Part shown: positions 33,147 through 53,487 of the stretch, one piece after another
How the letters are laid out: each line of letters begins with the position of its first letter
Position numbering within the stretch: position 1 is the stretch's first letter
Source of the DNA: Actinomycetota bacterium
Lineage (GTDB): Bacteria; Actinomycetota; Acidimicrobiia; Acidimicrobiales; GCA-2861595
Direction: 5' to 3'
DNA length: 64,000 nucleotides
Assembly: GCA_052387235.1 (NCBI GenBank)
Contig: JBQTJJ010000001.1
Location: 7,581-71,580 of the forward strand
The notes under the pieces: model-generated
Told to the model about the DNA's origin: nothing
What the model saw: the letters and a program-made list of their open reading frames with translations, nothing else
The model's database searches: none
Position numbers and translations under genes: made by a program

Positions 33147-33536
33147 TCACGTGCCGTCGACCGTGGCCTGCCCCGGGTTGGTGATGCTGATCACGCCGCC
33201 CCACGTGCACATGCAGGTGCAGACGTCGGTGAGGGCCGGGGTGCCCCCGATGAGCACGGTGGCGGCGCCGGGCGTCCACGGCGCCGTCGTCACCGGGATG
33301 CACGGCTGGGGCGTCAGCACCCCCGACGCGGCCGACGTGGCCGCCGCCACCTGGGGGTTGGACGGCGTGGTGCACATCCCGAACGGGGCCAGGTTGGCCA
33401 TGGGCACGCTGTCCGTGACGACCGCTCCAGGCGGGCCGCCGGCGTTCGTGCGCTTGGCGGGAGGCACGGTGAGGGTGGACGGGTTGGTACCCATCGTGCA
33501 GGCCACCATCGCACCGGACACGACCAGCTTGGGCAC
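33147..33536 (-). CDS. DUF4280 (PAAR-like) spike-tip protein
   Basis: MPKLVVSGAMVACTMGT.PSTL.V ... PFGMCT ... C.P.T..PW.PG ... GG.PAL ... C.C..GG.I is the DUF4280 pattern. GTG start preceded by GGAAGGGAGG. Confidence 0.8.
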   Translation of the reverse strand: MPKLVVSGAMVACTMGTNPSTLTVPPAKRTNAGGPPGAVVTDSVPMANLAPFGMCTTPSNPQVAAATSAASGVLTPQPCIPVTTAPWTPGAATVLIGGTPALTDVCTCMCTWGGVISITNPGQATVDGT

Positions 33537-33559
33537 GGTCGGAGCCTCCCTTCCTGGGG

Positions 33560-34726
33560 TCAGCGATGGACGAGCTGGGTGAGGCGCACGAGTTGGGCCA
33601 CATCCCGGCCCGACGGGGTCACCGTGGGGGGGACCACCAGGAAGGCGGTCGCGGCAGATGGGCCGCCCCCCACCTCCCCCACCGCCTGCCGGGGCCCGGG
33701 GGCGTCGCCCGGCATCACCAGCATCTGCGTGGAGAAGGATCCGGTGGCGTCGGCGGTGACGGCCTTCTCGCCCAGGCCGGGCAGCCAGCGCAGGGTGACG
33801 GCGGCGTTGGCCGGGTAGCCGGTCCCGTTCAGCTGGGTCACGAAGCCCGGCGGCCCGATGCAGGGCGAGCAGGTCAGCACCACCACGCCCGGCACGGTGG
33901 GCGGGATGGTGGTGGTCGTGGTGGGGATGGTGCTGTCCGGGGTGGTGGGCCTCGTCGTCGATGACGAGGAGGACGACGACGAGGACGAGCTGCTGCTGCT
34001 ACTACTACTGCTGCTGCTTGACGAGGTGGTGGTGCCAGGCGGCTTGCAGGGGACGTTCCAGTCCAGGCGGGCGCTCGCGCCTCGCTGGTCGCCGGCCCGC
34101 ACCGTGTAGCTGCCGGCCGCCGCCTCGGGCTGGGCGGGGACGGCCCAGCCCGTGACCTGCCAGGTGCCGCTGGCGGTGACCGTGGCCGTGATGCGGGTGA
34201 TCACGGTCTCCAGGCGGTAGAAGACCACCGTCACGATGTTCTGGGCCGTCGCCCCCCCCTGCCAGAGCGTCCCCGAGGCGGTGACCGACCAGGTGCCCGG
34301 CGCGGCGGGGCCGCACTGCTCCTCGCCGGTAGCCGCGTACGAGGGCTCGTCGTAGGCCCGCATGTCGGGCACGGACAGGAACGGGGCGCTGGCCGTGACG
34401 TTGAAGCAGGTCGTCCCGCACACCGTCTGGGTGGCCATCACGGTGTAGGTGCCGCCCGCCCGCCGGGCGGGCGCGATCGGGAGGGAGAACATGCCCTGGC
34501 CGTTGGCGGCGGTGCCACCGGCCGGGGCGCCGGCGAAGGTGACGTCGACCTTGCCGTTCGGGGCGAACCCGGTGCCGGTGACGGTGATGGACCATGTGCC
34601 GCTGGTGCCGGCCGGGGCCGACGAAGGGGTGAGGGTGATGGCGGCGCTGCTCTGCGCCGACGCGGCCGGGACCAGGACGGCGCCGGCCAGCAGGGCGGCG
34701 GCGACCAGGACCCGGGCCCGGCTCAT
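33560..34726 (-). CDS. Secreted multi-domain (Ig/IPT-like) protein with 22-Ser linker
   Basis: Sec signal MSRARVLVAAALLAGAVLVPAASA. Repeated beta-rich segments such as ITLTPSSAPAGTSGTWSITVTGTGF. ATG 34726 overlaps the upstream stop (ATGA). Confidence 0.65.
   Translation of the reverse strand: MSRARVLVAAALLAGAVLVPAASAQSSAAITLTPSSAPAGTSGTWSITVTGTGFAPNGKVDVTFAGAPAGGTAANGQGMFSLPIAPARRAGGTYTVMATQTVCGTTCFNVTASAPFLSVPDMRAYDEPSYAATGEEQCGPAAPGTWSVTASGTLWQGGATAQNIVTVVFYRLETVITRITATVTASGTWQVTGWAVPAQPEAAAGSYTVRAGDQRGASARLDWNVPCKPPGTTTSSSSSSSSSSSSSSSSSSSSSSTTRPTTPDSTIPTTTTTIPPTVPGVVVLTCSPCIGPPGFVTQLNGTGYPANAAVTLRWLPGLGEKAVTADATGSFSTQMLVMPGDAPGPRQAVGEVGGGPSAATAFLVVPPTVTPSGRDVAQLVRLTQLVHR
33959..34024 (-). 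repeat. Coding homopolymer: 22 consecutive Ser codons, flanked by Thr/Pro-rich linker
   Basis: Mixed TCG/TCA/AGC/AGT/TCC codons, read directly from the reverse complement. Confidence 0.9.
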
Positions 34727-35997
34727 GTCCCGATGGTCTTCACGAACCCCGCGAGGTAGACGGCAGTTGTGCAGGCCGGGCTGGCGCACTCGACGTGGAG
34801 CGTGACCTTGGTTCCTGGGGACACGATGACGGGTGACACGAAGTGGTAGTCCAAGTCCCGGAAGTTGGCCAGGTTGAGGCGAAGCAGGACCCGGTCACCC
34901 CGCTTCAATTCCACGATACCGCTGTCCCCGGCGGGGTTCTGGAGCACGATGTCGGTGAGCGAGAAGACCTGCTTGTCGCCCACCGTGACGGCATCCTCGA
35001 GCACCCCGGGCCCGTTCACGGCCAGCCTGGCGTCGAACGGGTTCCCGAGGTCCGTCTCCACCTCCTCGGCGCCGGCCTGGGCGCCGGGCGGCGTGCCGCC
35101 CGAGTCCCCGCCCCCGGTGTCGATCTGGGGTGCGGCCGCGCCGACCTGCTTGGCCAGGTCCTGCAGGGCTTCCTCGGTCTGCTCCAGGGGCTCCTCCACC
35201 GCCTCCTTCGCCGCCGACTCCACGGTCGGCTTGAGCAGGGTGAACCACAGGATGACCAGCAGGAGCAGGAGGGCCAGCACGGCCAGGAGGACCTTCCAGA
35301 ACCAGCTGGGCAGGCGGGGCTCTTGGAGATAGGAGCCGTCGACGGTGATCGGCGCGGCGCCGTCCGCCTCCACCGACACCTGGAACGGCAGCGTCTTCGG
35401 CCGCCCCCGCCAGAACGTCTTGAGCGGGCGGACCACGACCTTGGAGAACGTGGCGGTGTCGGGCTCGGCCACCAGCGCAGGGGGCCCGAACGAGAAGCGG
35501 AGCAGGTCGGCCGGGTCGGCGGCGGTGAGCACGGCGTTGACGCGGGTGTTGCCCCGGTTGTCGAGGGCCAGCTCGTGGCGCCCGACCCGGCCGCCGTGGG
35601 AAGTCCGCGGAAGCAGCTCGGCCGAGACGTCGACGAAACCGCCGACCTCGAGGGTGCCCTCCTCCACCATCCCGCCGGCCGGGTCCTCCTTGGACGACAC
35701 CTTGACCGCGAAGGGGATGGCGCCGGACCGGGCCTCCGCCGATCGGGGCACGGTGAAGCGGATGTGGGCGACGCCCTCTGCACCGGGGAACAGCGACAGG
35801 CTGGGTGGGTCGGCGGTGGCCCAGGCGGCGGCGTCGCCGAGGATCTCGAAGGTGAACTGGTCCACGACGGTGCCGGTGTTGCGGAGGCGGACGTCGACGA
35901 CGACGGTCCCTCCGGGCTCGACCTGCAGCGCCGAAGACGAGAGGGAGGCGGTCGCGCCCACGGCCCCGCAACATACGCCCGGGACCTGCGCCGTCAA
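34723..35997 (-). CDS. Bitopic membrane protein: N-terminal Ig/CARDB-like domains, one TM, C-terminal beta-rich domain
   Basis: No signal peptide. LQVEPGGTVVVDVRLRNTGTVVDQFTFEILG resembles CARDB/NEW3-type Ig folds. TM helix WFWKVLLAVLALLLLLVILWFTLL sits at about aa 235-258. Start is TTG 35997 or GTG 35961. Confidence 0.65.
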   Translation of the reverse strand: MTAQVPGVCCGAVGATASLSSSALQVEPGGTVVVDVRLRNTGTVVDQFTFEILGDAAAWATADPPSLSLFPGAEGVAHIRFTVPRSAEARSGAIPFAVKVSSKEDPAGGMVEEGTLEVGGFVDVSAELLPRTSHGGRVGRHELALDNRGNTRVNAVLTAADPADLLRFSFGPPALVAEPDTATFSKVVVRPLKTFWRGRPKTLPFQVSVEADGAAPITVDGSYLQEPRLPSWFWKVLLAVLALLLLLVILWFTLLKPTVESAAKEAVEEPLEQTEEALQDLAKQVGAAAPQIDTGGGDSGGTPPGAQAGAEEVETDLGNPFDARLAVNGPGVLEDAVTVGDKQVFSLTDIVLQNPAGDSGIVELKRGDRVLLRLNLANFRDLDYHFVSPVIVSPGTKVTLHVECASPACTTAVYLAGFVKTIGT

Positions 35998-36155
35998 AGG
36001 GCCCCGGGGAAGCCACCGGGGCAGCTCGCACTGCCCGTTCGGGTGACCTTCGCGGGAGGCCCGTTCGGGCCGTCCCGTGTGGAGCGCGCGTAGAGCCGTT
36101 GCGGAGGGGACCGTGCAAGAGTGCGGGCCCGGCGGGGGAAGGAGCAGGAACGAAA

Positions 36156-36782
36156 GTGGCCGATCGCATCCCCGTGTTCGTCTATGCCGCGGACCCGATC
36201 TCCCAGGCCGGGCTGGTGGCGCAGCTCCGCAGCCGGCCGGAGGTGACCGTCGTGGCCGCGGGCGACGTGGACACCGCCGTGGTGGCCATCGTCCTCTGCG
36301 ACGAGATCGACGACGAGGCCCTCAAGGCGGCCCGGGCCGTACAGCGCAACGGCTGTCCCAAGCTGGTGCTGGTGGCCACCCGCCTCGACGACGCCGGCCT
36401 CCTCCGGGCCGCGGAGACCGGCGCCAGCGGCCTCTTGCGCCGGAGCGAGGCCTCGCCCGAGCGCCTGGTGACGTGCGTCCGGTCGGCCCTGGCCGGCGAC
36501 GGGGCCGTCCCGCCCGACCTGCTGGGCCGGCTGCTCGACCAGGTGGGCCGCCTGCAGCGCCAGGTGCTGGCACCCCGCGGCCTCACCATGAGCGGCATGG
36601 CCGAGCGGGAGCTGGAGGTGCTCCGGCTCGTGGCCGACGGCCTCGACACGGCCGAGATCGCCAGCCGGCTCTCCTACTCGGAGCGCACGGTGAAGAACGT
36701 CATCCACGACATCACGTCCCGCTTCCAGCTGCGCAACCGGGCCCACGCCGTCGCCTACGCCGTGCGGGAGGGCCTCATCTGA
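36156..36782 (+). CDS. LuxR-family regulator with receiver-like N-terminal domain (atypical), no adjacent kinase
   Basis: GTG 36156 after GGGGGAAGGAGCAGG. C-terminal ERELEVLRLVADGLDTAEIASRLSYSERTVKNVI HTH. The N-terminal domain has only one Asp in the usual DD position and no clear conserved Lys. Confidence 0.8.
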   Translation: MADRIPVFVYAADPISQAGLVAQLRSRPEVTVVAAGDVDTAVVAIVLCDEIDDEALKAARAVQRNGCPKLVLVATRLDDAGLLRAAETGASGLLRRSEASPERLVTCVRSALAGDGAVPPDLLGRLLDQVGRLQRQVLAPRGLTMSGMAERELEVLRLVADGLDTAEIASRLSYSERTVKNVIHDITSRFQLRNRAHAVAYAVREGLI

Positions 36783-36853: not shown

Positions 36854-36946
36854 TGGCGGCGCGGGCCGAAAGGGCACCGGGAGCTGCCCGAACGGCTGCA
36901 CGGCGGCGGCTGGGCGGCGGCGGGCGGGGCTGGAATCGTCGCGACG

Positions 36947-37696
36947 GTGATCCACGACGTGGACGAGTCGCTCCGCCGGTTGCTGCGCCGGGACGCCCTC
37001 AACGGCTCCGACGTGGAGGTGGCGTTCGACGCGCCCACCAAGGAGTGGGCCGCGTCCCGGAACACGCCCAGCGTCGACGTCTACCTGTACGACATCCGCG
37101 AGAACATGCGCCGGCGGGACGTGATGTACGAGGAGGTCCGGGACGAGGACGGGCGGGTCCTCGCCCGCCGCCCGCCGCCCCGGCGCTTCGACCTCTCCTA
37201 CCTCCTCACCGCCTGGACGCAGCGGCCCGAGGACGAGCACCGCCTCCTGGCCGCCTGCCTGGGTTGCTTCCTGCGCTACGAGGTCCTCCCCGAGGAGGTG
37301 CTGGCCGGCGCCCTGGCCGACCAGGACCGGCCCGCCCACGTGCACATCGCCCTCCCACCGGCCGAGGACCGCAACATCTCCGACGTGTGGTCGGCGCTCG
37401 GGGGCGAGCTGAAGCCGTCCCTCGACCTGGTGGTGACCGCGCCGTTCGTGACGGGCCGCTCGGTGGACGTGGGCGCCCCGGTGCTGGAGGGACCGCTGCT
37501 GCGCATGCGGGGCGACGGCGTGGGGGAGGCGGCCGGCGCCCCGACCGTGACCGCCGCCAGGCCCGGCGCCGGCGGCCGGCGGCCCCGGGCCCCGGCCCGG
37601 CAGAAGCGGGCCCTGGCCGAGGAGCTGGTGCAGGGTGCCAAGGGCGAGGACCAGCCCGGGCGCAGCTTCTGGCTCAAGCAGCTGGAGTCGCCGTGA
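36947..37696 (+). CDS. CIS tail terminator/cap protein (DUF4255, Afp16/Pvc16-like)
   Basis: MIHDVDESLRRLLRRD ... VEVAFDAPTKEW ... PSVDVYLYDIREN ... DLSYLLTAW is the DUF4255 signature. GTG start. Confidence 0.85.
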   Translation: MIHDVDESLRRLLRRDALNGSDVEVAFDAPTKEWAASRNTPSVDVYLYDIRENMRRRDVMYEEVRDEDGRVLARRPPPRRFDLSYLLTAWTQRPEDEHRLLAACLGCFLRYEVLPEEVLAGALADQDRPAHVHIALPPAEDRNISDVWSALGGELKPSLDLVVTAPFVTGRSVDVGAPVLEGPLLRMRGDGVGEAAGAPTVTAARPGAGGRRPRAPARQKRALAEELVQGAKGEDQPGRSFWLKQLESP

Positions 37697-39810
37697 GCGG
37701 CCCCGGGAGCTCGCCCGTGCGGCCCTCGCCCTCGACAGCGCCGGGACGCAACGGCGGCCCGGTGCCGGCCGGGGCCGACCCGTCGCTGGCCCAGCTGCTG
37801 GCCCGGCTGGCCGCCGTGGAGGCCCGGGTGCGCGAGGAGGTGGGCCGGCGGCGGGCGCGCGACGCGGCCCCCGACGACCGCTTCCGCGGCCTCTACATCT
37901 CCGAGGCCCAGGTCGACGAGCTGCTGTCGGGGCCCCGCCCCCGGCCGGCCGGCCGGACCGCAGCGGCGACGCCGCCACCGGGGAGCCGCGACCGGGCCGG
38001 CGCCGGGCCGACCCGGCTGGAGCGCCTGGCCGGCGCCTTCGCCCTCGACGACGTGGACCTCGACCTGGTCGTCGTCGCCCTGGCGCCAGACCTCGACCCC
38101 CGCTTCGAGCGGCTGTACGGCTACCTCCACGACGACGTGACCAGGCGGCGGGCCAGCACCGGGCTGGCCCTGGAGCTGTGCGGTCTCGGGCTGGCGTCGG
38201 CCGAGCGCCGCCGCCTGGGCGAGGCCGGGGCGCTGTGCCGGGGCGGCGTCCTGGTGGTGGGCGAGCCCGAGCGACCCTTCCCCACCCGCTCCCTGCGCGT
38301 GCCCGACCGGGTCGCCCTCCACCTCCTGGGCGACCCCACGCCGGAGCCGTCGCTGGCGGGGCTCGTCATGACCACGGCCCCCCTCGCCAGCCGGGCGTCG
38401 TCCGATCTGGCCCGCGCCCTGGCCGCCGGGACCCGGCTCGCGTACCTGCGGGAGCGCCCCGGTGCGTCGGGCCACGCCACCGCCGCGGCCGCCTTCGCGG
38501 CTGCGGGGTGGCCGGCCGTCGTCCTGGACCTGCGCCGGCTGGCCCCCGGCGCCGACGCCGCGGTCATGGCCGCCACCGCGGTGAGGGAGGCGCGCCTGCT
38601 CGGCGCCGGCCTGGTGGCCGGCCCGGTCGAGGGGCTGGCCGAGCGGGACGTGGCCGCCCTGCGCACCATGGCCGACGTCACCTGGCCGGTGGTGCTGGTG
38701 GGGGGCCGGGGCTGGGACCCGGGGTGGTCGGCCGACGTGCCGCTGCTCCTGGATGCGCCGGCGCCGGCGCCGTCCCAGCGCGCCTCGCTGTGGCTGGCGG
38801 CCCTGTCCGGCGCGGGGGCGGAGGCCGTCGACGCGGCCGCGGCCACCACCCACTTCACCCTCTCGCCCGACCAGGTGTGGCGGGCGACGGTGACGGCCCG
38901 GCTGCGGGCCGAGGCCGAGGGCCGACCGCTGGGCGCCGGCGACCTGGGGCACGGCGCCCTGGCCCAGAACGGCGCCGGCCTGGAGCGGCTGGCCCGGCGC
39001 GTCGAGCCGGAGGTCGGCTGGGACGACCTGGTGCTGCCGGCGCCGGTGCTGCACCAGCTGCGGGAGCTCACCGTCCGGGCCCGCCTGGGCGACACCGTGT
39101 TCGGCGACTGGGGCCTGGGCCGTGGCCACCGGGGCCACCGCAGCCTCAGCGCCCTGTTCGCCGGGCCGTCGGGCGTCGGCAAGACGATGGCCGCCGAGGT
39201 GGTGGCCGGCGACCTGGGGCTCGACATGTACGCCATCGACCTGGCCACCGTCGTCGACAAGTACATCGGGGAGACGGAGAAGAACCTCGACCGCATCTTC
39301 ACCGAGGCGGAGCGGGTGAACGGGGTGATCTTCTTCGACGAGGCCGACGCCCTGTTCGGCAAGCGCTCCGAGGTCAAGGACGCCAGGGACCGCTACGCCA
39401 ACGTGGAGGTGGCCTACCTGCTCCAGCGGCTGGAGGCGTTCACCGGCATCGCCGTGCTCGCGACCAACCTGCGCAACAACGTGGACGAGGCCTTCGCCCG
39501 CCGCCTCGACGCGGTGGTGGACTTCCCGCTGCCCGAGGAGCCCGAGCGGCTCCGGCTCTGGGAGCACTGCCTGGGCCCGCTGGTGCCGAGGGCGCCCGAC
39601 CTGGACCTGGCCTTCATGGCCCGCTCCTTCAGCCTCTCGGGCGGCAACATCCGCAACGTGACCGTGGCCGCCGCCTTCAGCGCGGCGAGCCGCAGGGAGG
39701 AGGTCACCATGGCCGATCTGGTCCGGGCCACCCAGCGCGAGTACCGCAAGCTGGGCCGCCTGTGCGTGGAGGCCGAGTTCGGCCCCTGGCTCGAGGTGGT
39801 GGCGCCATGA
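37693..39810 (+). CDS. CIS AAA+ ATPase (Afp15/Pvc15-like)
   Basis: GTG 37693 overlaps the upstream stop. Walker A FAGPSGVGKT, Walker B VIFFDEADALF, ATNL...D.A..RR. Long N-terminal non-ATPase region, as in Afp15-type proteins. Confidence 0.88.
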   Translation: MSGPGSSPVRPSPSTAPGRNGGPVPAGADPSLAQLLARLAAVEARVREEVGRRRARDAAPDDRFRGLYISEAQVDELLSGPRPRPAGRTAAATPPPGSRDRAGAGPTRLERLAGAFALDDVDLDLVVVALAPDLDPRFERLYGYLHDDVTRRRASTGLALELCGLGLASAERRRLGEAGALCRGGVLVVGEPERPFPTRSLRVPDRVALHLLGDPTPEPSLAGLVMTTAPLASRASSDLARALAAGTRLAYLRERPGASGHATAAAAFAAAGWPAVVLDLRRLAPGADAAVMAATAVREARLLGAGLVAGPVEGLAERDVAALRTMADVTWPVVLVGGRGWDPGWSADVPLLLDAPAPAPSQRASLWLAALSGAGAEAVDAAAATTHFTLSPDQVWRATVTARLRAEAEGRPLGAGDLGHGALAQNGAGLERLARRVEPEVGWDDLVLPAPVLHQLRELTVRARLGDTVFGDWGLGRGHRGHRSLSALFAGPSGVGKTMAAEVVAGDLGLDMYAIDLATVVDKYIGETEKNLDRIFTEAERVNGVIFFDEADALFGKRSEVKDARDRYANVEVAYLLQRLEAFTGIAVLATNLRNNVDEAFARRLDAVVDFPLPEEPERLRLWEHCLGPLVPRAPDLDLAFMARSFSLSGGNIRNVTVAAAFSAASRREEVTMADLVRATQREYRKLGRLCVEAEFGPWLEVVAP

Positions 39811-40964
39811 GAGGGCGCGCCCATGTCGAGGCCGAGGAACGGGTCCCGGTCGCCAGGCCGGCGCCCGCGCCGGCCGGCCCCGCCGTCGCGACCGAGCCGG
39901 GCCTGGCCGGCGGCCTCCTCGGCCTCCAGGCCACCGCCGGCAACGCGGCGGTGGGGAGTCTGGTGGAGCGGCGCGGGAGCGGCCCGTGCCCCTGCGGCGG
40001 CAGCGGTGGCGACTGTGCCTGCGAGGCCGGGAGGGGCGACGAGCAGGGGGAGGATCGGGCAGGCGAGGCCCTCGACCCCGGCGCCCGCGCCTTCCTGGAG
40101 GCCCGCTTCGGGCGGGACCTGGGCGACGTGCGGGTCCACACCGGTGCCGGGGCGGCCGCCTCGGCCGAGTCGGCCGGCGCCGAGGCGTACACCACCGGCA
40201 AGGACATCGTGTTCGCCCCGGGCGCCTACCGGCCCGACTCGCCCGAGGGCCGCCACCTGCTGGCCCACGAGGTGGCCCACACCCTCCAGCCCGAGCGCGG
40301 GCCGGCCCCGTCCGGGCCCGTCTCCCGCCCCGGCGACCCGGCCGAGGTGGCCGCGGCCCGGGCCGCCGATGCCGTCGCCGCCGGCGCCGCCCCGGCCCGG
40401 CTCGGCAGCCGGCCGGCCGGGGTGGTGCACCGCCAGGCCGAGGACGAGGAGGCCGCTCCCCAGCCGGTGCCGGACATGAGCGGGACCGGGGAGGTGACCG
40501 AGGTGCAGGCCATGGCCAACATCTCCCTGCCCGGACGGACCGATGCCAGCTTCTCCAGCTCGTTCACGACCCAGGGCGCCACCCGCAGGCGCGGCGAGGG
40601 CGGCTGCGACACCGTCGCCGGGAACATGGTGAACACCTTCACCGTGTCGACCACGGTGACGCTGCCGCCGGTCCCGGACGGGCTCACCGAGTGCCAGGCC
40701 GCCAACGCCCAGCGCTTCATCGACACGATCCTCGCCCCGCACGAGCAGGAGCACGTGGCCCACTTCAACACCTACAACGGGACGTCCACCGTGCCGTTCA
40801 GCCTGACGGTCTGCGCCGGCGACGACCTCCAGGCCATGATCCAGGCCGAGCACGACACGGCCCAGTCCACCCGGCAGGCCGCGGCCCAGGCCCTCAGCGA
40901 CTCCATCGACCCGTTCAACGTCGACGTCGACATCGACGCGGGCTGCGAGGCACCGGCGGAGTGA
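39807..40964 (+). CDS. DUF4157 protein (intact HEVAH) with Cys cluster and unknown C-terminal domain carrying a second HExxH; candidate CIS cargo
   Basis: ATG 39807 overlaps the ATPase stop. LQATAGNAAV ... FLEARFGRDLGDVRVHTG ... AYTTGKDIVFAPG ... LLAHEVAHTLQ matches DUF4157. CPCGGSGGDCAC lies upstream. HEQEH at nt 40740-40754. Confidence 0.8.
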   Translation: MRGRAHVEAEERVPVARPAPAPAGPAVATEPGLAGGLLGLQATAGNAAVGSLVERRGSGPCPCGGSGGDCACEAGRGDEQGEDRAGEALDPGARAFLEARFGRDLGDVRVHTGAGAAASAESAGAEAYTTGKDIVFAPGAYRPDSPEGRHLLAHEVAHTLQPERGPAPSGPVSRPGDPAEVAAARAADAVAAGAAPARLGSRPAGVVHRQAEDEEAAPQPVPDMSGTGEVTEVQAMANISLPGRTDASFSSSFTTQGATRRRGEGGCDTVAGNMVNTFTVSTTVTLPPVPDGLTECQAANAQRFIDTILAPHEQEHVAHFNTYNGTSTVPFSLTVCAGDDLQAMIQAEHDTAQSTRQAAAQALSDSIDPFNVDVDIDAGCEAPAE

Positions 40965-41013
40965 TCAAGGCGGGTGCCGGCGCACCCGGACCCGAACGAG
41001 AGGAGCCTGACCG

Positions 41014-42381
41014 ATGGCCGGAGCCGGACGAGCGAGGAGGCCGGGGGGTGAGGAGGCCCGCCACCCGGAGCGCGCCGTGGCCCCGGCCCGGCCGGCGCCG
41101 GCGCCCGCCGACGACGCGGCACCGGAGCACTCCCCCCTGCTCGACCTGCAGCGCCAGGTCGGCAACGCCGGTGTGCAGGAGCTGGTCGACCTGGCCGGGT
41201 CGGAGCCGGGGCGGCCGCTCGACCCCGACGTGCGGGCCTCGATGGAGGCGTCGTTCGGCCGGTCGTTCGCCGGCGTCGAGGTCCATGAGGGACCGGCCGT
41301 CGACCGGGCCGCCGAGGGGCTCGGCGCCGCCGCCTTCGCGGCCGGGGAGGACGTCTTCCTGCGATCCGACGTCGACCCCGGGACGCCGCCGGGCCGGGAG
41401 GTGCTGGGTGAGGAGCTGGCCCACGTGGCCCAGGGGGTGGGCGCGAACCGCGCCGCCCACCTGCTGCCGCCAGAGGGCGGGGTCGAGCAGGAGGCCCACC
41501 GGGCCGCCCACGAGGCGGCCGAAGGGCGGCCCGCGGCGGTGAGCTTCGCCCCGGCCGCCGCCACCGGCGTCGGCCGCTTCCTCGACCCCATCAGCCTCGG
41601 TGTCATCGGGGGCATCGGCTACGGGGTCAAGAAGCTCTACGAGGAGCTCACCGAGGAGGAGGTGGAGGCGACCAAGCCCGACCCCGACCAGCCCACCCAG
41701 GCGACCGTCGATGCGATAAAGGGCGGTGTCCCGCCCCAGCTCGACGCCGCCGTGGCCAAGCTGGGCGGTGACCCGACCCCGGCCAACAGCAAGGCCGCCG
41801 CCGCCTCCCTCTCCTCGGTGAAGGACTTCCTGATCGGCCAGCTGCCCCCCACCAACCAGGGGCCGGTGATGTCCGTGCTGCTCACCGTGACAGGGGCCAT
41901 CAACACCCTGGAGGCGGCGGCCGACCCGACCGGTGTGCTCAAGGAGCTGCAGGGCAGCGTGGCCGCCAAGAAGGCCGAGCTGGACGGGCTCGTGGCCAGC
42001 GCCAAGGAGCCGGCCGTGGGACCGGACGGCAAGGAGCTGCCGCCGGACGCGCTCACGCCCGACCAGGCGTCGATCCTGAGCAGCGGGCCGGTGGTCTGGA
42101 TGGGCGAGGCGGCCACCATGCTGGCCGAGCCGGAGCCCGATCCCGATCTGATCGCCGGCAAGCTCGACGGGGCGGCCGGCGCCATCCGCAGCGTGAACGC
42201 GCCGCCGGCCGTCCTGCCGCAGCTGACCAAGATCGCCTTGAACTGCGGGTTGTACGCGGAGACGGCCAAGGCGACCAAGCTCACCGTGGCCGAGTCCGTC
42301 CCCCAGGCCATGGCGCAGCTCGAGGCGGCCAAGTCGATGATCGCCGAGCTGGGCGTGCCGCCCGAGATCCCGCCGGAGTGA
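41014..42381 (+). CDS. DUF4157 protein (degenerate metal motif EELAH) with helical C-terminal domain; candidate CIS cargo
   Basis: LQRQVGNAGVQELV ... MEASFGRSFAGVEVHEG ... AFAAGEDVFL ... LGEELAHVAQG. The C-terminal about 270 aa is Ala/Leu/Lys/Pro-rich and I do not recognise it. Confidence 0.75.
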   Translation: MAGAGRARRPGGEEARHPERAVAPARPAPAPADDAAPEHSPLLDLQRQVGNAGVQELVDLAGSEPGRPLDPDVRASMEASFGRSFAGVEVHEGPAVDRAAEGLGAAAFAAGEDVFLRSDVDPGTPPGREVLGEELAHVAQGVGANRAAHLLPPEGGVEQEAHRAAHEAAEGRPAAVSFAPAAATGVGRFLDPISLGVIGGIGYGVKKLYEELTEEEVEATKPDPDQPTQATVDAIKGGVPPQLDAAVAKLGGDPTPANSKAAAASLSSVKDFLIGQLPPTNQGPVMSVLLTVTGAINTLEAAADPTGVLKELQGSVAAKKAELDGLVASAKEPAVGPDGKELPPDALTPDQASILSSGPVVWMGEAATMLAEPEPDPDLIAGKLDGAAGAIRSVNAPPAVLPQLTKIALNCGLYAETAKATKLTVAESVPQAMAQLEAAKSMIAELGVPPEIPPE

Positions 42382-42388
42382 CGGGGCC

Positions 42389-42416
42389 GCCGGCCTGCCC
42401 GTAGGGGCAGGCCGGC
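42389..42416 (+). terminator. Perfect 12-bp stem / 4-nt loop hairpin between the cargo genes and the sheath gene
   Basis: GCCGGCCTGCCC-GTAG-GGGCAGGCCGGC starts 8 nt after the stop at 42381. It is followed only by TT, so the U-tract is weak. Confidence 0.5.
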
Positions 42417-42506
42417 TTACCCGGAGGCACGCCCGGCCGGCCCTACCGGCAGCCCGGGCCCGGCGCCATCCTCGCCTCCGACCGACCTTGTGCGAGGAGG
42501 GGCCGC

Positions 42507-44045
42507 ATGCCTCAGTACCTTTCGCCCGGCGTCTACATCGAGGAGAAGGAGCCCGGCGCCCGACCCATCGAAGGGGTGGCGACGGCAGTGGCCGCCTTCG
42601 TCGGCGTGGCGACCCAGGGACCGTTCAACACGCCCACCCTCGTCACGAACTGGACGCAGTTCACCCAGACGTTCGGGGACTTCGCCGAGGGCTCCTACCT
42701 GGCCCACGCCGTCTACGGGTACTTCCTCAACGGCGGCGGCAGCGCCTACATCGTGCGCATCGGCGACGACGCCTCGGCCGGCGCCGCCCCGCCGGCCCGG
42801 GCCGAGCTGATGAGCGCCAGCGACACCACCATCGGCGCCTACCGGGTCAACGCCCTGGAGCCCGGAACGACGGGGAACGACATCACCGTCGAGGTGCAGG
42901 ACGCCTCGGAGCCCGGCCCCGAGACCTTCAAGCTGGTGGTGCGCAAGGGCAGCACCGAGGAGACCTTCGACAACCTCACCACCAGGCGGGGCCGGCAGAA
43001 CGCGGTCACGGTGGTGAACCAGCAGTCGCAGCTCGTCCGGCTGGAGGAGATCGGCACCGCGGCGGCGGTCGAGCGCCGGCCCGCCTCGGGCGTGGCCACC
43101 CTGGGCGGCGGCGGCGCCGTGCCCACGCCGGCCAGCATCTCGGCCGAGGACTACGTGGGCAACTCGGCCGACCGCACCGGCTTCGGTGGGCTGGAGGCCA
43201 TCGACGACGTCACCATGGTGAGCGTCCCCGACATCATCGCCGCCTACGAGCGGAACATGATCGAGCTGGAGGGCCTCCAGGCCGTGCAGCTGGCCATGAT
43301 CGCCCACTGCGAGCTGATGGGCGACCGCATGGCCATCCTCGACCCCCCGCCCGGCCTCAACGCCCAGCAGATCAAGGAGTGGCGGGTCGACAAGGCCGGC
43401 TACGACTCCAAGTACGCAGCCCTCTACTGGCCCCGGATCAGGGTCTTTGACCCCGCCTCGGGCCAGAACATCTACGTGCCGCCCAGCGGGCACATGGCCG
43501 GGATCTGGGCCCGCACCGACGGCACCCGGGGCGTCCACAAGGCCCCGGCCAACGAGGTCGTGCGGGGCGCCATCTCCCTCGAGACGAACATCACCAAGGG
43601 CGAGCACGACAGCCTGAACCCGGTGAACGTGAACTGCATCCGCGCCTTCCCGGGCCGGGGCGTGCGCGTCTGGGGGGCCCGGACCCTGTCCAGCGATCCC
43701 GGGTGGCGCTACGTCAACGTGCGCCGCCTCTTCAACTACGTGGAGAAGTCGATCCTGGGCGGGACCCAGTGGGTGGTGTTCGAGCCCAACGACAACCTGC
43801 TGTGGGGGGCGGTCAAGCGGACCATCGCCGCCTTCCTCTACCGGGTGTGGCTGGACGGCGCCCTCTTCGGCACCACGCCCGAGCAGGCCTTCTACGTGAA
43901 GTGCGACGACGAGACCAACCCCCAGGAGGTCATCGAGGCGGGGCAGGTGGTGTGCGAGATCGGCATCGCCCCCGTCAAGCCGGCCGAGTTCGTGGTGTTC
44001 CGGCTGGCCCAGCTGCCGTCCGGCACGTCGGCCCTCTCCGAGTAG
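42507..44045 (+). CDS. Contractile tail sheath protein (Afp2-4/Pvc2-4-like)
   Basis: MPQYLSPGVYIEE....RPIEGV.T..AAFVG ... NPVN.IR.FPGRG..VWGARTL is the canonical sheath N- and C-terminal signature. Confidence 0.93.
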   Translation: MPQYLSPGVYIEEKEPGARPIEGVATAVAAFVGVATQGPFNTPTLVTNWTQFTQTFGDFAEGSYLAHAVYGYFLNGGGSAYIVRIGDDASAGAAPPARAELMSASDTTIGAYRVNALEPGTTGNDITVEVQDASEPGPETFKLVVRKGSTEETFDNLTTRRGRQNAVTVVNQQSQLVRLEEIGTAAAVERRPASGVATLGGGGAVPTPASISAEDYVGNSADRTGFGGLEAIDDVTMVSVPDIIAAYERNMIELEGLQAVQLAMIAHCELMGDRMAILDPPPGLNAQQIKEWRVDKAGYDSKYAALYWPRIRVFDPASGQNIYVPPSGHMAGIWARTDGTRGVHKAPANEVVRGAISLETNITKGEHDSLNPVNVNCIRAFPGRGVRVWGARTLSSDPGWRYVNVRRLFNYVEKSILGGTQWVVFEPNDNLLWGAVKRTIAAFLYRVWLDGALFGTTPEQAFYVKCDDETNPQEVIEAGQVVCEIGIAPVKPAEFVVFRLAQLPSGTSALSE

Positions 44046-44093
44046 CAGCAGGCCCACCGGCGGCACCACCCCGCCCCAGAAAGGAGCGCGTCC

Positions 44094-44537
44094 ATGCCCA
44101 TCGGCGAACACCCGATCGCGGGTTACAGCTACCACGTCGAGATCAGCGGCGTCACCATGGCCCAGTTCAAGTCGGCCGAGGGCCTCGGCATCAAGATCGG
44201 CGTCATCGAGCACCGGGAGAACAAGCTGACCGGCCTGCCCGTGCTGAAGAAGCTGCCCGGCCACGTCCAGTACAGCGACATCACCCTCAAGCGGGGCAAG
44301 GTCAACGACAAGGTCTTCTGGGACTGGATCAAGCAGGTGGCCGACGGCGACATCGACGGGGCCCGCAAGGAGGGCTCGGTGGTGCTGTTCGACTACGCCC
44401 ACGGCGAGGTGGGGCGCTTCGACTTCGAGGGCGCCTGGCCCAGCGACGTGAACGTGGGCGCCCTGGACGCGGCGGGCGACGAGGTCCTGCTCGAGAGCCT
44501 CACCATCACCATCGAGAAGCTCAACGTCCCGGCCTAG
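44094..44537 (+). CDS. Tail tube protein (T4 gp19-like, Afp1-like)
   Basis: Y.V.I.G...A.F....GL...I.V.E.RE ... G.V.Y.DITLKRG...D..FWDW pattern. RBS AAAGGAG. Confidence 0.9.
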   Translation: MPIGEHPIAGYSYHVEISGVTMAQFKSAEGLGIKIGVIEHRENKLTGLPVLKKLPGHVQYSDITLKRGKVNDKVFWDWIKQVADGDIDGARKEGSVVLFDYAHGEVGRFDFEGAWPSDVNVGALDAAGDEVLLESLTITIEKLNVPA

Positions 44538-44541
44538 GACG

Positions 44542-44949
44542 ATGACCCCGCCCGTCGCCGAGGCCGACCAGCAGGCCGGCCTGCACACCGAGTTCAGCTT
44601 CGAGCTGCCCGTGGGGTACGTGGACGGCTCCGGTGCCGTGCACAGGAGCGGCGTCATGCGCATGGCCACGGCGCGCGACGAGATCATGCCGCTGCGCGAC
44701 CCCCGCGTCCTCGACAACGAGGCCTACCTCTCGGTGATCCTGCTGGCGCGCGTCGTCACCCGGCTGGGCACGGTGACGTCGGTGAACCCCGGGGTCATCG
44801 AGGGCCTGTTCGCCGCCGACCTGGCCTTCCTCCAGGACCTCTACCGGCGGGTCAACCAGGAGGGCCACACCCGCGCCGCCGTCAGCTGCCCGTCCTGCCA
44901 GCACGAGTTCGCGGTCGACGTGGCCGGTGGTCGCCCGGGGGAATCGTGA
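44542..44949 (+). CDS. Conserved CIS protein at the tail-assembly-chaperone position, with C-terminal CxxC
   Basis: Sits between tube and tape-measure-like genes. FELPVGYVDGSG.VHRSGVMRMATARDE ... CPSCQHEF. Function is inferred from position only. Confidence 0.6.
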   Translation: MTPPVAEADQQAGLHTEFSFELPVGYVDGSGAVHRSGVMRMATARDEIMPLRDPRVLDNEAYLSVILLARVVTRLGTVTSVNPGVIEGLFAADLAFLQDLYRRVNQEGHTRAAVSCPSCQHEFAVDVAGGRPGES

Positions 44950-45110
44950 CGTACGCGCCCGACCGTCTGTTCGAGGAGGTCGCGTACGTGGCGTACCACT
45001 TCCACTGGCCGCTCGCCGAGATCATGGACCTGGAGCACCCGCTGCGGCGTCGCTTCGTGGAGGAGATCGGCGCCATCAACCGGCGCCTGTCCGAGCACCA
45101 GGGGGCCTGA
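44946..45110 (+). CDS. Small conserved CIS-associated protein (54 aa; not in the supplied ORF track)
   Basis: GTG 44946 overlaps the upstream stop (GTGA). Translation: VTYAPDRLFEEVAYVAYHFHWPLAEIMDLEHPLRRRFVEEIGAINRRLSEHQGA. It resembles the short protein usually encoded here in actinobacterial CIS loci (I believe DUF6760; to be verified). Confidence 0.6.
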   Translation: MTYAPDRLFEEVAYVAYHFHWPLAEIMDLEHPLRRRFVEEIGAINRRLSEHQGA

Positions 45111-45117
45111 CGAGGCC

Positions 45118-47616
45118 ATGCGCCGGCCCTTCCGGCGGGAGCGCACCGAGCCCGCACCGGCGCCGGCGCCGGCCGCCGCCCCGCCGCCCGCGCCCCCGGC
45201 CTCACCGGACCGGGGCGCCCGCCACGGCCCGTGGGACGAGCTGCCCCGCCTGCGGGCCACGGCCGAGCAGCTGGAGACGACCGCGGCGACAGCGGCGTTC
45301 CTTTCCGAGCTGATCACCCGCCAGCCGGCGCCGGTGGCCCTGCAGCCCCTCAGCCACGACGTCTCGCTCAGCGCGCCGGCCGGCATCGTGCTCGGCATCG
45401 CCACCACCGTGGAGCGGCGGGGGCCGGACGCGGAGCTGCCCCTCGCCCCTCCCCCACCGCCCGCCGGTGCCCCGGCGGGCCGGTCCACACCGGTCCCGGC
45501 GGCCAGGCGGCCGGCGAGCGACGGACCGGCGGTGCGGGCCAGCGGCGACCGCCGACGGGCCCCGGACCAGGGCCGAATCCGGCCCCTCCCCACCGTGGCG
45601 GCCCCGACCCGGGCCGGGCCGGCGAGGGCTCCCGCTCCGCCTCCTGACACCGCCATCGGCTCGGCCCCGGCCGGCGAGGCGGGCGGCGAGGGCACGGGGG
45701 CGGCGACGCTGGGCCGGGCCGGGCGCGCCGCGCCGGTGCCGGCCCGCGCCCCCGGCGACGACCCCGCCGCCCCGCCGGCCGGGCCCGAGCCCACTGCCAC
45801 CGCGCCCGACCTGGTGCTGCCCCCCGTGACCGGCACGACTCGGCCCCCGCCCGGCCACGACCGGACCGCCCCCGCGGGCGCGGCCGCCGCCTCGCCGACC
45901 GGGCTCGACCCCGCCTCGCCGGCCGGGCCCGACCCTGCCCCGCCGGCCGAGCCGGTCCCGGGGCCGGATCCTGCCCCGCCGGCCGAGCCGGGCCCGCGGC
46001 CGGCACCAGCGCTCCGCGAGCCGGCCCCCGTCTCGGTGGACCGGCCCCGCCCGCCGGCCGTCCCGGCGCCGGCCAAGCCCGACCGGCCGCCGCAGCTGCG
46101 GGCTCCCACCCTGGGGCGCCGAGCCGAGGCCCGGCCCCGCATCGGGCCCCCGATGGCGTCGCCGGCCGGCGGCGCCCAGCGGGCCCCCAAGAAGGTGGGC
46201 GGCACGGCCACCGGAGGCAGCTCGCCCGCCCCGGCCACCGGGCCGGTGGCCAAATCGACCGGCGGCGGCGGGCCCGGCGGCGGGGAACCGATGCTGCCGC
46301 CGTCGACCCTCCCCGTGCTCAACCCCGGTGGCGACCTCACGGGCGGGGGTGGATCCGGTGCCGGCCCGGGCGGCGAGACGACCGTGTCCGGCGGCGGGAG
46401 CTTCGGGGGCTCCCTCACCGTGGGCGGCGAGGTCACGGCCGGCGGCGGCCTGACGGCCGGGGGCGGCCTGTCGGCGGGCGGCGAGGGTGTGGTCGGCGGA
46501 GGGGCCACCGTGGGAGGCGGCGTGCTGGCCGGGGGCGACGTCACGGCCGGCGGAGCCGGCACCTTCGGGGGGGCGGCCACGGTGGGCGGCGACCTCTCGG
46601 TGGGCGGGGCCGCATCAGTGGGTGGGGCGGCCGCCGTGGGCGGGGAGATCACGGCCGGCGGGGCCGCCACCGTGGGTGGCTCGGCCACGGTGGGGGCCAA
46701 CCTGTCGGTCGGGTCCACCGTCAGCGCCGGCGCCGGCATGTCGGCGCCCACGCTGGCCGTGGGCAGCCTGATCGCCGGCTCGGTGACGGCCGGGTCGGTG
46801 GAGGCGGCCACCATCAGCGGGGGGGGTGGTGGGGGCGCCGGCGGTGGGGCGGCCCGGGCGCCCGACGCCACCGCGCCCCTGGTGAGCCGGCGCCCGCCCC
46901 TCACCGAGCGGGCCCACCGGCCGGAGGACCTGCCCGACGACGTGCGCCGGGACGTGGAAGCGGCGGCCGGCGTCCCCCTGGCCGGCGTGATGGTGCACCG
47001 GGGCGCGGGCGTCGGCATCGAGGCGGGCCGGCGGGAGGCACGGGCCTTCACCGCCGGCGGCGAGGTGTACCTGCCCAGCGAGCACGGCCCCCTCGACCAG
47101 GAGCCGGCCCGGTCACTGCTGGCCCACGAGCTGGTCCACGTCGGCCAGCAGCGCCGCCTCGGCCGGGCCCTCCCCCACGAGGCCACCACGGAGGGCCGCC
47201 AGCTGGAGGCCGGCGCGGCCGACGTGGAGCACCGGGTCTCCACCCTCCCCACCCGGGCCCACCACCCGCCCGGCGACCGCCCGGCCGCGGCCGCCGTCCG
47301 GGCCGGCGTGGCCAGCGAGGCCGGCGACGGCACGGTCCTGTTCTCCCCCCCGCCCGGCGAGGGGCCGGCCGCGACCGGCGCCGCCTCCGTCCCCGTGGCG
47401 CGCCCGGGACCGCAGCGGGCCGCCGGCGACGCCTCCGACACCGGCGCCAGCGCCCCCGCCGCCACCGGCGAGACCACCGGCCCGGCGCCGGCCGGCGCCG
47501 GCGACGAGGACGTCGAGGAGGTCGTCGACAAGCTCTACCGCCCCATCCTCGACCGCCTCCGCCGCGACCTGCTGATCGAGCGGGAGCGGGCCGGGCTCCT
47601 GCTGGACCGGAGGTAG
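45118..47616 (+). CDS. Tape-measure-position protein: Pro/Ala-rich region + Gly-rich repeats + embedded DUF4157 + conserved C-terminal helix
   Basis: Located between tube/chaperone and tube-initiator genes. DUF4157 block DVRRDVEAAAGVPLAGVMVHRG ... FTAGGEVYLP ... LLAHELVHVGQQ at about 46920-47155. C-terminus DKLYRPILDRLRRDLLIERERAGLLLDRR. Confidence 0.75.
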   Translation: MRRPFRRERTEPAPAPAPAAAPPPAPPASPDRGARHGPWDELPRLRATAEQLETTAATAAFLSELITRQPAPVALQPLSHDVSLSAPAGIVLGIATTVERRGPDAELPLAPPPPPAGAPAGRSTPVPAARRPASDGPAVRASGDRRRAPDQGRIRPLPTVAAPTRAGPARAPAPPPDTAIGSAPAGEAGGEGTGAATLGRAGRAAPVPARAPGDDPAAPPAGPEPTATAPDLVLPPVTGTTRPPPGHDRTAPAGAAAASPTGLDPASPAGPDPAPPAEPVPGPDPAPPAEPGPRPAPALREPAPVSVDRPRPPAVPAPAKPDRPPQLRAPTLGRRAEARPRIGPPMASPAGGAQRAPKKVGGTATGGSSPAPATGPVAKSTGGGGPGGGEPMLPPSTLPVLNPGGDLTGGGGSGAGPGGETTVSGGGSFGGSLTVGGEVTAGGGLTAGGGLSAGGEGVVGGGATVGGGVLAGGDVTAGGAGTFGGAATVGGDLSVGGAASVGGAAAVGGEITAGGAATVGGSATVGANLSVGSTVSAGAGMSAPTLAVGSLIAGSVTAGSVEAATISGGGGGGAGGGAARAPDATAPLVSRRPPLTERAHRPEDLPDDVRRDVEAAAGVPLAGVMVHRGAGVGIEAGRREARAFTAGGEVYLPSEHGPLDQEPARSLLAHELVHVGQQRRLGRALPHEATTEGRQLEAGAADVEHRVSTLPTRAHHPPGDRPAAAAVRAGVASEAGDGTVLFSPPPGEGPAATGAASVPVARPGPQRAAGDASDTGASAPAATGETTGPAPAGAGDEDVEEVVDKLYRPILDRLRRDLLIERERAGLLLDRR
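46381..46850 (+). repeat. In-frame Gly-rich short-period repeats (about 20 units of V/T-G-G-x-x-T/S)
   Basis: SLTVGGEVTAGGGLTAGGGLSAGGEGVVGGGATVGGGVLAGGDVTAGGAGTFGGAATVGGDLSVGGAASVGGAAAVGGEITAGGAATVGGSATVGANLSVGSTVSAG... Confidence 0.85.
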
Positions 47617-47620
47617 GGAG

Positions 47621-48055
47621 GTGGCGGCGTCGAAGGACCCGGGCCTGGCCATCCGCTACGAGGTGAAGGTCGACGGCGTGGACCTGGGCGCCTTCACCGA
47701 GTGCGACGGGCTGGCCGGCGAGTACGAGGTCCTCGAGTACCCGGAGGGCGGCAACAACGGCTTCGTCCACCGCCTCCCGGGCCGCCTCAAGCACACCAAC
47801 GTCACGCTGAAGCGGCCCATCGACGCCGAGTCCGGGAAGCTGGCCGCCTGGTTCAGCAGCCTCAAGGACGCGGTGAGCCGCAAGACGGCCTCGATCACCG
47901 TCTACGACGGCAACAAGAAGAAGATCGCGGGCTGGAGCCTGGTGGGGGTCTGGCCGGCCAGGTACAGCGGCCCGAAGCTGTCGTCCACCGACGAGGGCGT
48001 GGCCATCGAGACCCTGGAGCTGGTCCACGACGGCTTCACCCACGAGGGCGGCTGA
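47621..48055 (+). CDS. Second gp19-like tube-family protein (Afp5-like tube initiator)
   Basis: RYEVKVDGVDLGAFTECDGL..EYEV.EY.EGG ... LKHTNVTLKRP is paralogous to 44094-44537. GTG after GGGAGG. Confidence 0.88.
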   Translation: MAASKDPGLAIRYEVKVDGVDLGAFTECDGLAGEYEVLEYPEGGNNGFVHRLPGRLKHTNVTLKRPIDAESGKLAAWFSSLKDAVSRKTASITVYDGNKKKIAGWSLVGVWPARYSGPKLSSTDEGVAIETLELVHDGFTHEGG

Positions 48056-48058
48056 CCG

Positions 48059-48721: not shown

Positions 48722-48731
48722 GGGGAGGAGC

Positions 48732-50465: not shown

Positions 50466-50538
50466 CGGCGGCGGATGGGGCTGGGGCCCCCATCTCGGCG
50501 AGGAGGCTGGGGTTGGGGCCCCAGCCGGGGAGAGAACA

Positions 50539-50931: not shown

Positions 50932-50932
50932 G

Positions 50933-52873: not shown

Positions 52874-52925
52874 CGGCCGGGGTGGGTACGATCGTGGCCG
52901 CGGCGGCCGGGAGGGGGTCGATGGC

Positions 52926-53468: not shown

Positions 53469-53487
53469 ACGAGAGGGCTGGCGGCCG

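Follow-up and report, generated by a model that had tools for sequence, protein, structure and literature searches.

A putative accessory operon with a probably relocated spike-tip gene beside a Streptomyces-type contractile injection system locus in an Acidimicrobiales genome

In a 64,000-nucleotide stretch of an Acidimicrobiales genome (contig JBQTJJ010000001.1 of assembly GCA_052387235.1, positions 7,581 to 71,580 of the forward strand; hereafter the window), three co-directional minus-strand genes lie beside a complete contractile injection system (CIS) locus and are divergent from a gene encoding a LuxR-type regulator. Gene 1 (34723..35961) encodes a membrane protein of 412 amino acids (aa) related to Sco4256, Sco4257 and Sco4258 of Streptomyces, gene 2 (33560..34726) a Sec-secreted protein of 388 aa with immunoglobulin (Ig)-like domains, and gene 3 (33147..33536) a PAAR-like DUF4280 spike-tip protein of 129 aa. 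We consider it probable, with room for doubt, that the three genes form an accessory or payload operon of a Streptomyces-type (class IId-like) CIS, to the 3' end of which the tip gene has been relocated. We propose the following scenario. Gene 1 would encode a Sco4256-family payload or accessory protein with a small jelly-roll in place of the RICIN lectin domain, and gene 3 would have moved from the slot between the VgrG-like spike gene and the gp25 gene to the end of the operon. The tip and the Sco4256-like protein would be made from one, probably leaderless, transcript beside the LuxR gene of the cluster. The DUF4280 cone may cap the Cis8/VgrG trimer, the spike having the C-terminal motif of tip-bearing spikes, and the LuxR protein may control the operon together with the CIS. 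Making the tip and the Sco4256-like protein from a common transcript would resemble the PAAR-plus-cargo modules found in T6SS (type VI secretion systems) as well as in eCIS (extracellular CIS). Membrane docking and firing would be the task of a CisA-family protein encoded at 53485..55092, not of gene 1.

All three minus-strand open reading frames (ORFs) are coding. Third-position GC, which discriminates true reading frames in the window (overall GC, 73%), was 0.93–0.95 (0.93 in gene 1), and the operon, divergent from the LuxR gene, has the arrangement described in the original prediction, which had been made from the sequence alone. The ATG of gene 2 sits within the ATGA that it shares with the stop codon of gene 1, as had been noticed, and the gap between genes 2 and 3 is 23 nucleotides (nt) instead of the 24 first given. 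Gene 3 has its own ribosome-binding site, GGGAGG. The upper limit of gene 1 had been placed at a TTG at 35997, but the GTG at 35961, which yields the 412-aa form, is the most likely start, because all homologues begin with MGA(T/S)A and the TTG falls inside the −35 box of a sigma-70-like promoter, TTGACG-16-TATGTT (35970..35997, minus strand). This promoter was the sole site of its type found, with one seen against none expected in shuffled sequences, and it ends 8 nt before the GTG, a position suggesting a leaderless mRNA for the operon; a TAnnnT box adjoins the start codon in most of the homologous loci. Genes 1 to 3 are probably read as one leaderless transcript. No intrinsic terminators were found, as expected at the GC content of the window.

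Gene 1 was matched to the Sco4256/4257/4258 family through members carried by plasmid-borne Streptomyces clusters. A tblastn search against plasmids retrieved 28 records, mostly from Streptomyces and also from Streptantibioticus and Kitasatospora, in which the matching proteins are annotated as 'hydrolytic protein', 'RICIN domain-containing protein' or 'hydrolase', and the best-characterised Streptomyces match is located between a DUF4157 gene and the AAA ATPase gene of a class IId cluster. The alignment of gene 1 with this RICIN-domain homologue (39% identity, E=1e-58) is colinear from residue 1 through the transmembrane (TM) helix and the KPxVxSAA motif that follows it, and the Foldseek neighbours of the gene 1 model are structures in the published HHpred list for domain 1 of Sco4256. 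This colinear match, the annotations, the position in the class IId cluster and the shared structural neighbours together indicate that gene 1 belongs, by homology, to the Sco4256/4257/4258 family but carries another C-terminal domain. It has the N-terminal PapD-chaperone-like domain of about 215 aa and the TM helix position that characterise the family, and stands in a class IId-type CIS locus. The gene 1 family comprises more than 1000 proteins, with relatives in 472 species genomes (Acidimicrobiia, Chloroflexota, Dormibacterota and others).

Sco4256 has been described as a particle-associated protein conserved in class IId loci, including those of Ilumatobacter, Roseiflexus and Actinosynnema, with a pilus-chaperone-like N-terminal domain, a TM helix at about residues 219–250 and a variable third domain, and its family was termed 'putative toxin' (Vladimirov et al. 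2023, PMC10020575). According to Casu and colleagues (2023, PMC10066040), Sco4256, Sco4257 and Sco4258 have a common N-terminus and a single TM helix with differing C-termini, of which two are RICIN domains, and the proteins are toxic in Escherichia coli. Their joint deletion in S. coelicolor leaves the tube lumen empty and phenocopies CIS mutants; the proteins are required for CIS-mediated cell death and were seen as putative envelope-targeting, CIS-associated effectors.

The topology first predicted for gene 1, with no signal peptide, one TM helix and a beta-rich C-terminus, was borne out by dedicated prediction and by an AlphaFold2 model. The single predicted TM helix is strong and very hydrophobic (residues 224–242 of the 412-aa form), and the model (mean pLDDT 88.7) comprises two N-terminal Ig-like domains, a long helix at residues 221–272, a disordered linker and a C-terminal beta-sandwich. 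The N-terminal domains had been called Ig/CARDB-like; two Ig-like domains are indeed present, but in Foldseek they were PapD/ASH-like rather than specifically CARDB-like, the full-length model matching SPD-2 of CEP192 (7ptb), FimC, protein 4.2, transglutaminase and a ciliary ASH structure (7sqc), all generic Ig/ASH/PapD matches. Modelled separately (pLDDT 94.2), the C-terminal domain is an eight-stranded jelly-roll of about 110 aa, in which the homologue alignment revealed an invariant NFRDLDYHF motif and two conserved cysteines. Alone, it gave weak jelly-roll matches in Foldseek (E ~1e-3) to nucleoplasmin-like proteins, the BcsB carbohydrate-binding domain, GOLD and fibre tips; no toxin fold was recognised among these matches, and none was functionally informative.

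The original prediction had likened gene 1, by its topology, to the membrane adaptors of cytoplasmic CIS in Streptomyces. CisA (SCO4242) is such an adaptor, required for the firing of cytoplasmic CIS (Casu et al. 2025, PMC12237407); as published, its TM helix is preceded by a Cys-rich segment that binds zinc, its conserved C-terminal domain of about 150 aa is carbohydrate-related, and its gene follows the baseplate wedge genes. In the window, the gene at 53485..55092 (plus strand), directly 3' of the Cis12-like gene, encodes a protein with two zinc ribbons, a low-complexity coiled coil, a TM helix at residues 357–375 (positive-inside, with a strongly positive cytoplasmic flank) and a C-terminal NADase-type discoidin glycan-binding domain of 160 aa. 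Its C-terminal 281 residues matched an Actinosynnema protein encoded right after Cis12 (E=3e-28), a Streptomyces spinoverrucosus protein of the same layout (E=1.6e-26) and a Kitasatospora protein encoded after Cis12 (41.5% identity, E=6e-14), and more weakly a zinc-ribbon protein encoded after Cis12 in a Streptomyces plasmid cluster. Its position, its predicted domains and these matches to actinomycete proteins of the same slot identify it as a putative member of the CisA family. In the published reciprocal BLAST searches with CisA (Casu et al. 2025, PMC12237407), Actinosynnema mirum gave a match, Ilumatobacter and Roseiflexus did not, and no match came from Acidimicrobiia; the gene at 53485..55092 would therefore extend the family to this class. 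The adaptor analogy was thus aimed at the wrong gene, because the gene at 53485..55092, in the canonical position, fits the published CisA, and gene 1 is instead a homologue of Sco4256–4258. Profile searches with gene 1 gave no zinc-ribbon or NADase-discoidin match, and it lies about 17 kb from the slot adjacent to cis11/cis12, on the other side of the locus, the slot itself being held by the CisA-family gene. Its architecture, its locus position and the presence of a CisA-family gene elsewhere in the window rule out gene 1 as a CisA homologue.

Homologues of gene 1 do, however, occur near CisA-like zinc-ribbon membrane proteins in several lineages. In Chloroflexota (e.g., L002, 10001–13990), a zinc-ribbon/TM protein follows the secreted partner of the gene 1 homologue; in Actinosynnema (L169, 10001–15436), the order is Cis12, CisA-like gene, propeller gene, gene 1 homologue and LuxR gene; and in Kitasatospora (L172, 9961–13431), the gene 1 homologue is directly 3' of the CisA-like gene. 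This linkage suggests that gene 1 homologues and CisA-like membrane proteins may work together. It also bears on a different explanation, in which gene 1 is not cargo, nor is the Sco4256 family as a whole, but a resident receptor or trigger. Gene 1 would lie N-in/C-out in the membrane of the producer, its PapD-like domains docking the CIS through the baseplate or the PAAR tip and its jelly-roll binding the gene 2 protein, and together with the CisA-family protein it would recruit and fire the cytoplasmic CIS. The recurrent co-operonic pairing with zinc-ribbon proteins, the predicted topology with its hydrophobic TM helix, Cys pair and linker, and the conservation of the C-terminal Ig domain in the secreted partner are in line with such a role, for which the CisA paper leaves room by allowing an additional factor (PMC12237407). 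The empty tube lumen of the Streptomyces triple mutant, however, points to a loading or cargo role, Sco4256 co-purifies with particles, and the Streptomyces homologues lack a secreted partner. We regard a resident receptor as possible but unlikely. Its broader form, in which Sco4256-like proteins are resident bitopic proteins forming, with the CisA-family zinc-ribbon protein and a Sec-secreted Ig or propeller partner, a conserved envelope platform for the cytoplasmic injection systems of monoderms, and in which the tip is co-expressed as the part engaged by the PapD-like domains of the platform, appears more doubtful still. The genetics of Streptomyces favour a loading or cargo role for the family, whereas the topology, the Cys pair, the secreted partner and the linkage to CisA-like genes favour a resident envelope complex. 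We ranked the payload or accessory operon first and the envelope platform second, with the explanations of an antagonist pair, a signalling module and a passenger gene, described below, behind them.

The features first ascribed to gene 2 were recovered. A Sec-type signal peptide is predicted (MSRARVLVAAALLAGAVLVPAASA, followed by QS), an Ig-like domain matches Big_6 (E=4e-9), the serine linker is a run of exactly 22 residues, and a further Ig-like domain forms the C-terminus. A signal-peptide gene follows directly 3' of gene 1, with a short gap, in most homologous loci; its product is an Ig-like protein (about 385 aa) in some, the window included, and a PD40 propeller protein (about 690 aa) in others. 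Between the C-terminal domain of gene 2 and the C-terminal Ig domain of a Chloroflexota propeller partner, identity is 38% (E=5e-10). Gene 2 is, on this homology, probably the version in this lineage of the Sec-secreted partner that accompanies gene 1 homologues in most genomes. Such pairing could also mean that gene 2, and the partners elsewhere, act like periplasm-type immunity or latency factors, bound to the C-terminal domain of gene 1 outside the cytoplasm and released when the CIS fires or under stress. The position of gene 2 immediately downstream, translationally coupled through the ATGA overlap, the recurrence of a signal-peptide gene after gene 1 and the toxicity of Sco4256–4258 in E. 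coli would all suit an effector with a secreted antagonist. The partners are, however, large propeller or Ig proteins (380–1070 aa), unlike typical immunity proteins, they are absent from the Streptomyces clusters, and the jelly-roll of gene 1 has no recognised toxin fold (best Foldseek E ~1e-3), making this explanation improbable.

The conservation of the neighbourhood was analysed in 88 loci around gene 1 homologues (87 distinct), searched with the proteins of the window. A specific orthologue of the window LuxR (E 1e-38 to 1e-120) was present in 83 of the 87 distinct loci, usually divergent and about 830 bp upstream. Among the 48 loci with at least 9 kb of sequence on the LuxR side, to which the count of core genes was restricted, 39 contained core CIS genes, five eCIS_core only and one a CisA-like gene only, leaving three with none. 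In Acidimicrobiia, Chloroflexota, Dormibacterota and Actinomycetes, gene 1 and the LuxR orthologue are thus conserved as neighbours of CIS loci. The original prediction had proposed the co-occurrence of genes 1 and 2 with CIS loci as a check, and gene 1 and a gene-2-like secreted partner do co-occur with them across phyla, supporting the functional tie of the operon to the CIS locus. In Egibacteraceae (L004/L005, 1–13364), a gene 1 homologue and a LuxR orthologue stand beside Tcp-like conjugation genes (TcpC, TcpE and AAA_10) and a gene for a protein of 1438 aa, with no CIS gene within 10 kb, this being among the three loci without any.

The regulator of the window (36156..36782, plus strand) has a GerE domain (E=7e-13) and a degenerate receiver-like N-domain. 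Its ORF is open from 36099, but the start is probably near 36156, because orthologues align from residue ~20. It matches the LuxR of a Streptomyces class IId cluster (E=2.5e-54), the regulator of the Streptomyces clusters, which is named SlpR, or the putative regulator sco4263, in the literature. A bipartite direct repeat of 29 nt, CACTTAACG-N3-ACTTAACGGGCAG, occurs 50–120 nt upstream of the LuxR orthologue across phyla (L001–L088); it is confined to this region and, where the gene order differs, stays beside LuxR rather than gene 1. At least eight Chloroflexota loci also have a half-site, about 80 nt upstream of Pvc16. The window itself has two weak copies, CCCGAACGGGC (36033..36068, minus strand; score 8.2), and a related CCCGAACGGC at 36887–36896. 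A LuxR box common to the gene 1 operon and the CIS operons was ruled out by the confinement of the motif to the region upstream of LuxR, with at most the half-site before Pvc16 in some Chloroflexota loci, and by the weakness of the copies in the window. The same neighbourhood could be read as a signalling module, in which an envelope cue would be sensed by genes 1 and 2, and these would govern the neighbouring orphan LuxR, which turns on the CIS genes. The LuxR orthologue is nearly always adjacent, even where no CIS genes lie within 10 kb (L004, L069 and L075), it has a degenerate receiver-like domain with no kinase nearby, and the direct-repeat site travels with it. The cytoplasmic part of gene 1 is, however, without a signalling domain, the Streptomyces homologues are several genes away from LuxR, and the adjacency is equally explained by LuxR regulating gene 1. 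We consider a signalling role highly improbable.

Gene 3 had been read as the PAAR-like tip, and a full-length DUF4280 match agrees with this (PF14107, E=7e-33, residues 5–123 of 129, profile positions 1–109 of 109); the protein consists of the domain only and also matches the IglG-like profile NF041248 (E=1e-10). It is encoded about 15 kb from the spike gene and not adjacent to VgrG. The interval between the spike and gp25 genes (50466..50538, 73 nt) contains no ORF, as stated in the original prediction, and the six-frame translation of the window, searched with three PAAR-type queries, yielded no PAAR-like or DUF4280 ORF besides gene 3. The slot contains two 14-nt direct repeats, GGGGCTGGGGCCCC and GGGGTTGGGGCCCC, each with the palindrome GGGGCCCC and 18 nt apart (50477–50522), which may be the scar of a lost tip gene or a hairpin element. 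The detachment of the PAAR-like gene from the spike, also proposed earlier, was supported by relatives of gene 3 with 55–69% identity, which occupy the VgrG–DUF4280–gp25 order in seven CIS loci (L092, L096, L099, L102, L104, L147 and L163), one of which also has a gene 1 homologue 8 kb downstream. In Actinosynnema, a classical PAAR gene is present in the spike–gp25 slot. The spike of the window (48732..50465, plus strand) ends in GGVVKLN, as in spikes with an adjoining DUF4280 or PAAR gene. The VgrG of a Streptomyces class IId cluster (L170, 1718–4127), where no PAAR gene is present between VgrG and gp25, ends in VKYPLPA, in contrast to the VN(I/L)N of spikes with a tip gene. The simplest reading of these sequences is that gene 3 is the system's own tip gene, probably relocated in a narrow lineage.

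The coupling of tip supply to an envelope-spanning anchor, as first suggested, was not conserved. DUF4280 follows genes 1 and 2 in only one of the 88 related loci (L006, an 89%-identical relative), by which a conserved triad of gene 1, gene 2 and DUF4280 was ruled out. In a separate locus (L162, 1785–4592), a DUF4280 gene 58% identical to gene 3 is placed between Pvc16 and LuxR, convergent with LuxR and adjoining a gene 1 homologue of 509 aa, and this is a second, independent placement of a DUF4280 gene beside LuxR and gene 1. Alternatively, the DUF4280 gene might have come to lie behind gene 2 by chance, as an unrelated passenger with no role in the CIS of the window, given that many close relatives are found in contexts without detectable CIS genes and that the arrangement is limited to a single narrow lineage. 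However, the spike of the window has a C-terminus like that of tip-bearing spikes and no PAAR-like gene other than gene 3 near it, the relatives of gene 3 occupy the VgrG–gp25 slot of homologous loci, and the independent placement in L162 likewise speaks against a passenger; we regard the passenger explanation as the least probable of those considered.

Several observations weigh against a payload or accessory operon with a relocated tip. The literature assigns an effector role to the Sco4256 family tentatively. By its predicted topology, gene 1 looks like a resident N-in/C-out membrane protein and not like tube cargo, because of its hydrophobic TM helix, the conserved Cys pair of its C-terminal domain, a linker able to span the wall and its Sec-secreted operon partner. 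The link of DUF4280 to genes 1 and 2 is confined to the window and L006, and an 80%-identical relative (L007) already has no DUF4280 gene after genes 1 and 2. Furthermore, Streptomyces class IId clusters are without any PAAR gene, suggesting that a tip may not be essential in class IId.

The CIS core locus (36947..53468, plus strand) is complete, and the nearest relatives of the window proteins are from Acidimicrobiales metagenome-assembled genomes. Its genes encode, in order, Pvc16_N/Cis16, an AAA ATPase, two proteins with DUF4157 (eCIS_core), sheath, tube, a conserved protein of 135 aa and a small DUF6760 ORF, followed by a DUF4157/tape-measure-like protein of 832 aa, another tube protein, a LysM tube initiator, the VgrG-like spike, gp25, Baseplate_J and the Cis12-like protein. 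The window thus has three DUF4157 (eCIS_core) proteins (39807–42381 and 45118–47616, plus strand), one of which, of 832 aa, is in the tape-measure position; DUF4157 proteins have been tied to cargo loading on the tube initiator in a recent paper. The small ORF at 44946–45110 (plus strand), initially unlisted, resembles the DUF6760 gene 3' of the 135-aa protein gene in related loci (L006, L169 and L170). Upstream of the sheath gene, in the interval after the second DUF4157 gene, a strong GC-rich hairpin, GGCCGGCCTGCCC-GTAG-GGGCAGGCCGGC (42385–42415), could serve as a terminator or attenuator. Convergent with the CisA-like gene, at the end of the CIS locus, is a gene for a large AAA/STAND regulator with Trans_reg_C and BTAD domains (SARP/AfsR-like; 55061–57985, minus strand).

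The findings are mostly explained by published families. New are the relocated tip gene, the non-lectin C-terminal variant of the Sco4256 family, and the finding that this family is linked across phyla to a secreted partner, to the LuxR regulator and to CisA-like genes. The relocated tip gene is a minor variant of gene order, and its position is the sole unusual feature of the operon. Of wider interest, the window has a full Streptomyces-type accessory set in Acidimicrobiia, consisting of a Sco4256-like protein, a CisA-like adaptor, the cluster LuxR and DUF4157 proteins, and Sco4256-like genes travel with a secreted partner, and often with a CisA-like gene, in several phyla. This recurring linkage provides a lead on how cytoplasmic injection systems meet the membrane and on whether their 'effectors' are truly cargo.

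Among known systems, Sco4256, Sco4257 and Sco4258 are the closest counterparts of gene 1, which has in common with them the homologous PapD-like N-domain of about 215 aa, the TM position and the post-TM KPxVxSAA motif, as well as a class IId-type CIS locus, the same LuxR regulator and a variable C-terminal domain. Gene 1 differs from them in carrying a jelly-roll of about 110 aa with a Cys pair rather than a RICIN or pore-forming lectin domain, in lying outside the interval between the AAA ATPase and sheath genes and divergent from LuxR, and in being present as one copy instead of three, with a secreted Ig protein gene and a PAAR-like gene downstream. With CisA (SCO4242), gene 1 shares only the bitopic N-in/C-out topology; its cytoplasmic domains are folded and Ig-like, it has no zinc ribbon, its C-terminal domain is unrelated and its locus position is another. 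The protein encoded at 53485..55092, in contrast, agrees with CisA in its position after cis12, in a Cys-rich zinc-binding segment that precedes the TM helix and in a carbohydrate-related C-terminal domain of about 150 aa. PAAR and DUF4280 tips stand beside cargo effectors in T6SS and eCIS, and the DUF4280 (PAAR_H) types are known to be associated with eCIS and with neighbourhoods rich in DUF4157 (Zhang et al. 2021, PMC8651086). Gene 3 is likewise a domain-only DUF4280 cone in a DUF4157-rich, eCIS-type locus, adjoining a putative effector gene, but it is about 15 kb from the spike gene instead of directly after it, and the 'cargo' encoded alongside is a TM protein whose CIS is probably cytoplasmic. 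The locus as a whole has the core gene set and order of the class IId eCIS or cytoplasmic CIS of Actinomycetes and Chloroflexota (classification of Chen et al. 2019 as cited in PMC12237407; for the Roseiflexus CIS, PMC12998442), with DUF4157 genes, a LuxR regulator, a CisA-type gene after the baseplate genes and, as in those systems, no tail-fibre gene. It differs from them in its host class, Acidimicrobiia, and from the Streptomyces class IId clusters, where a PAAR-like gene is absent, in having one, relocated.

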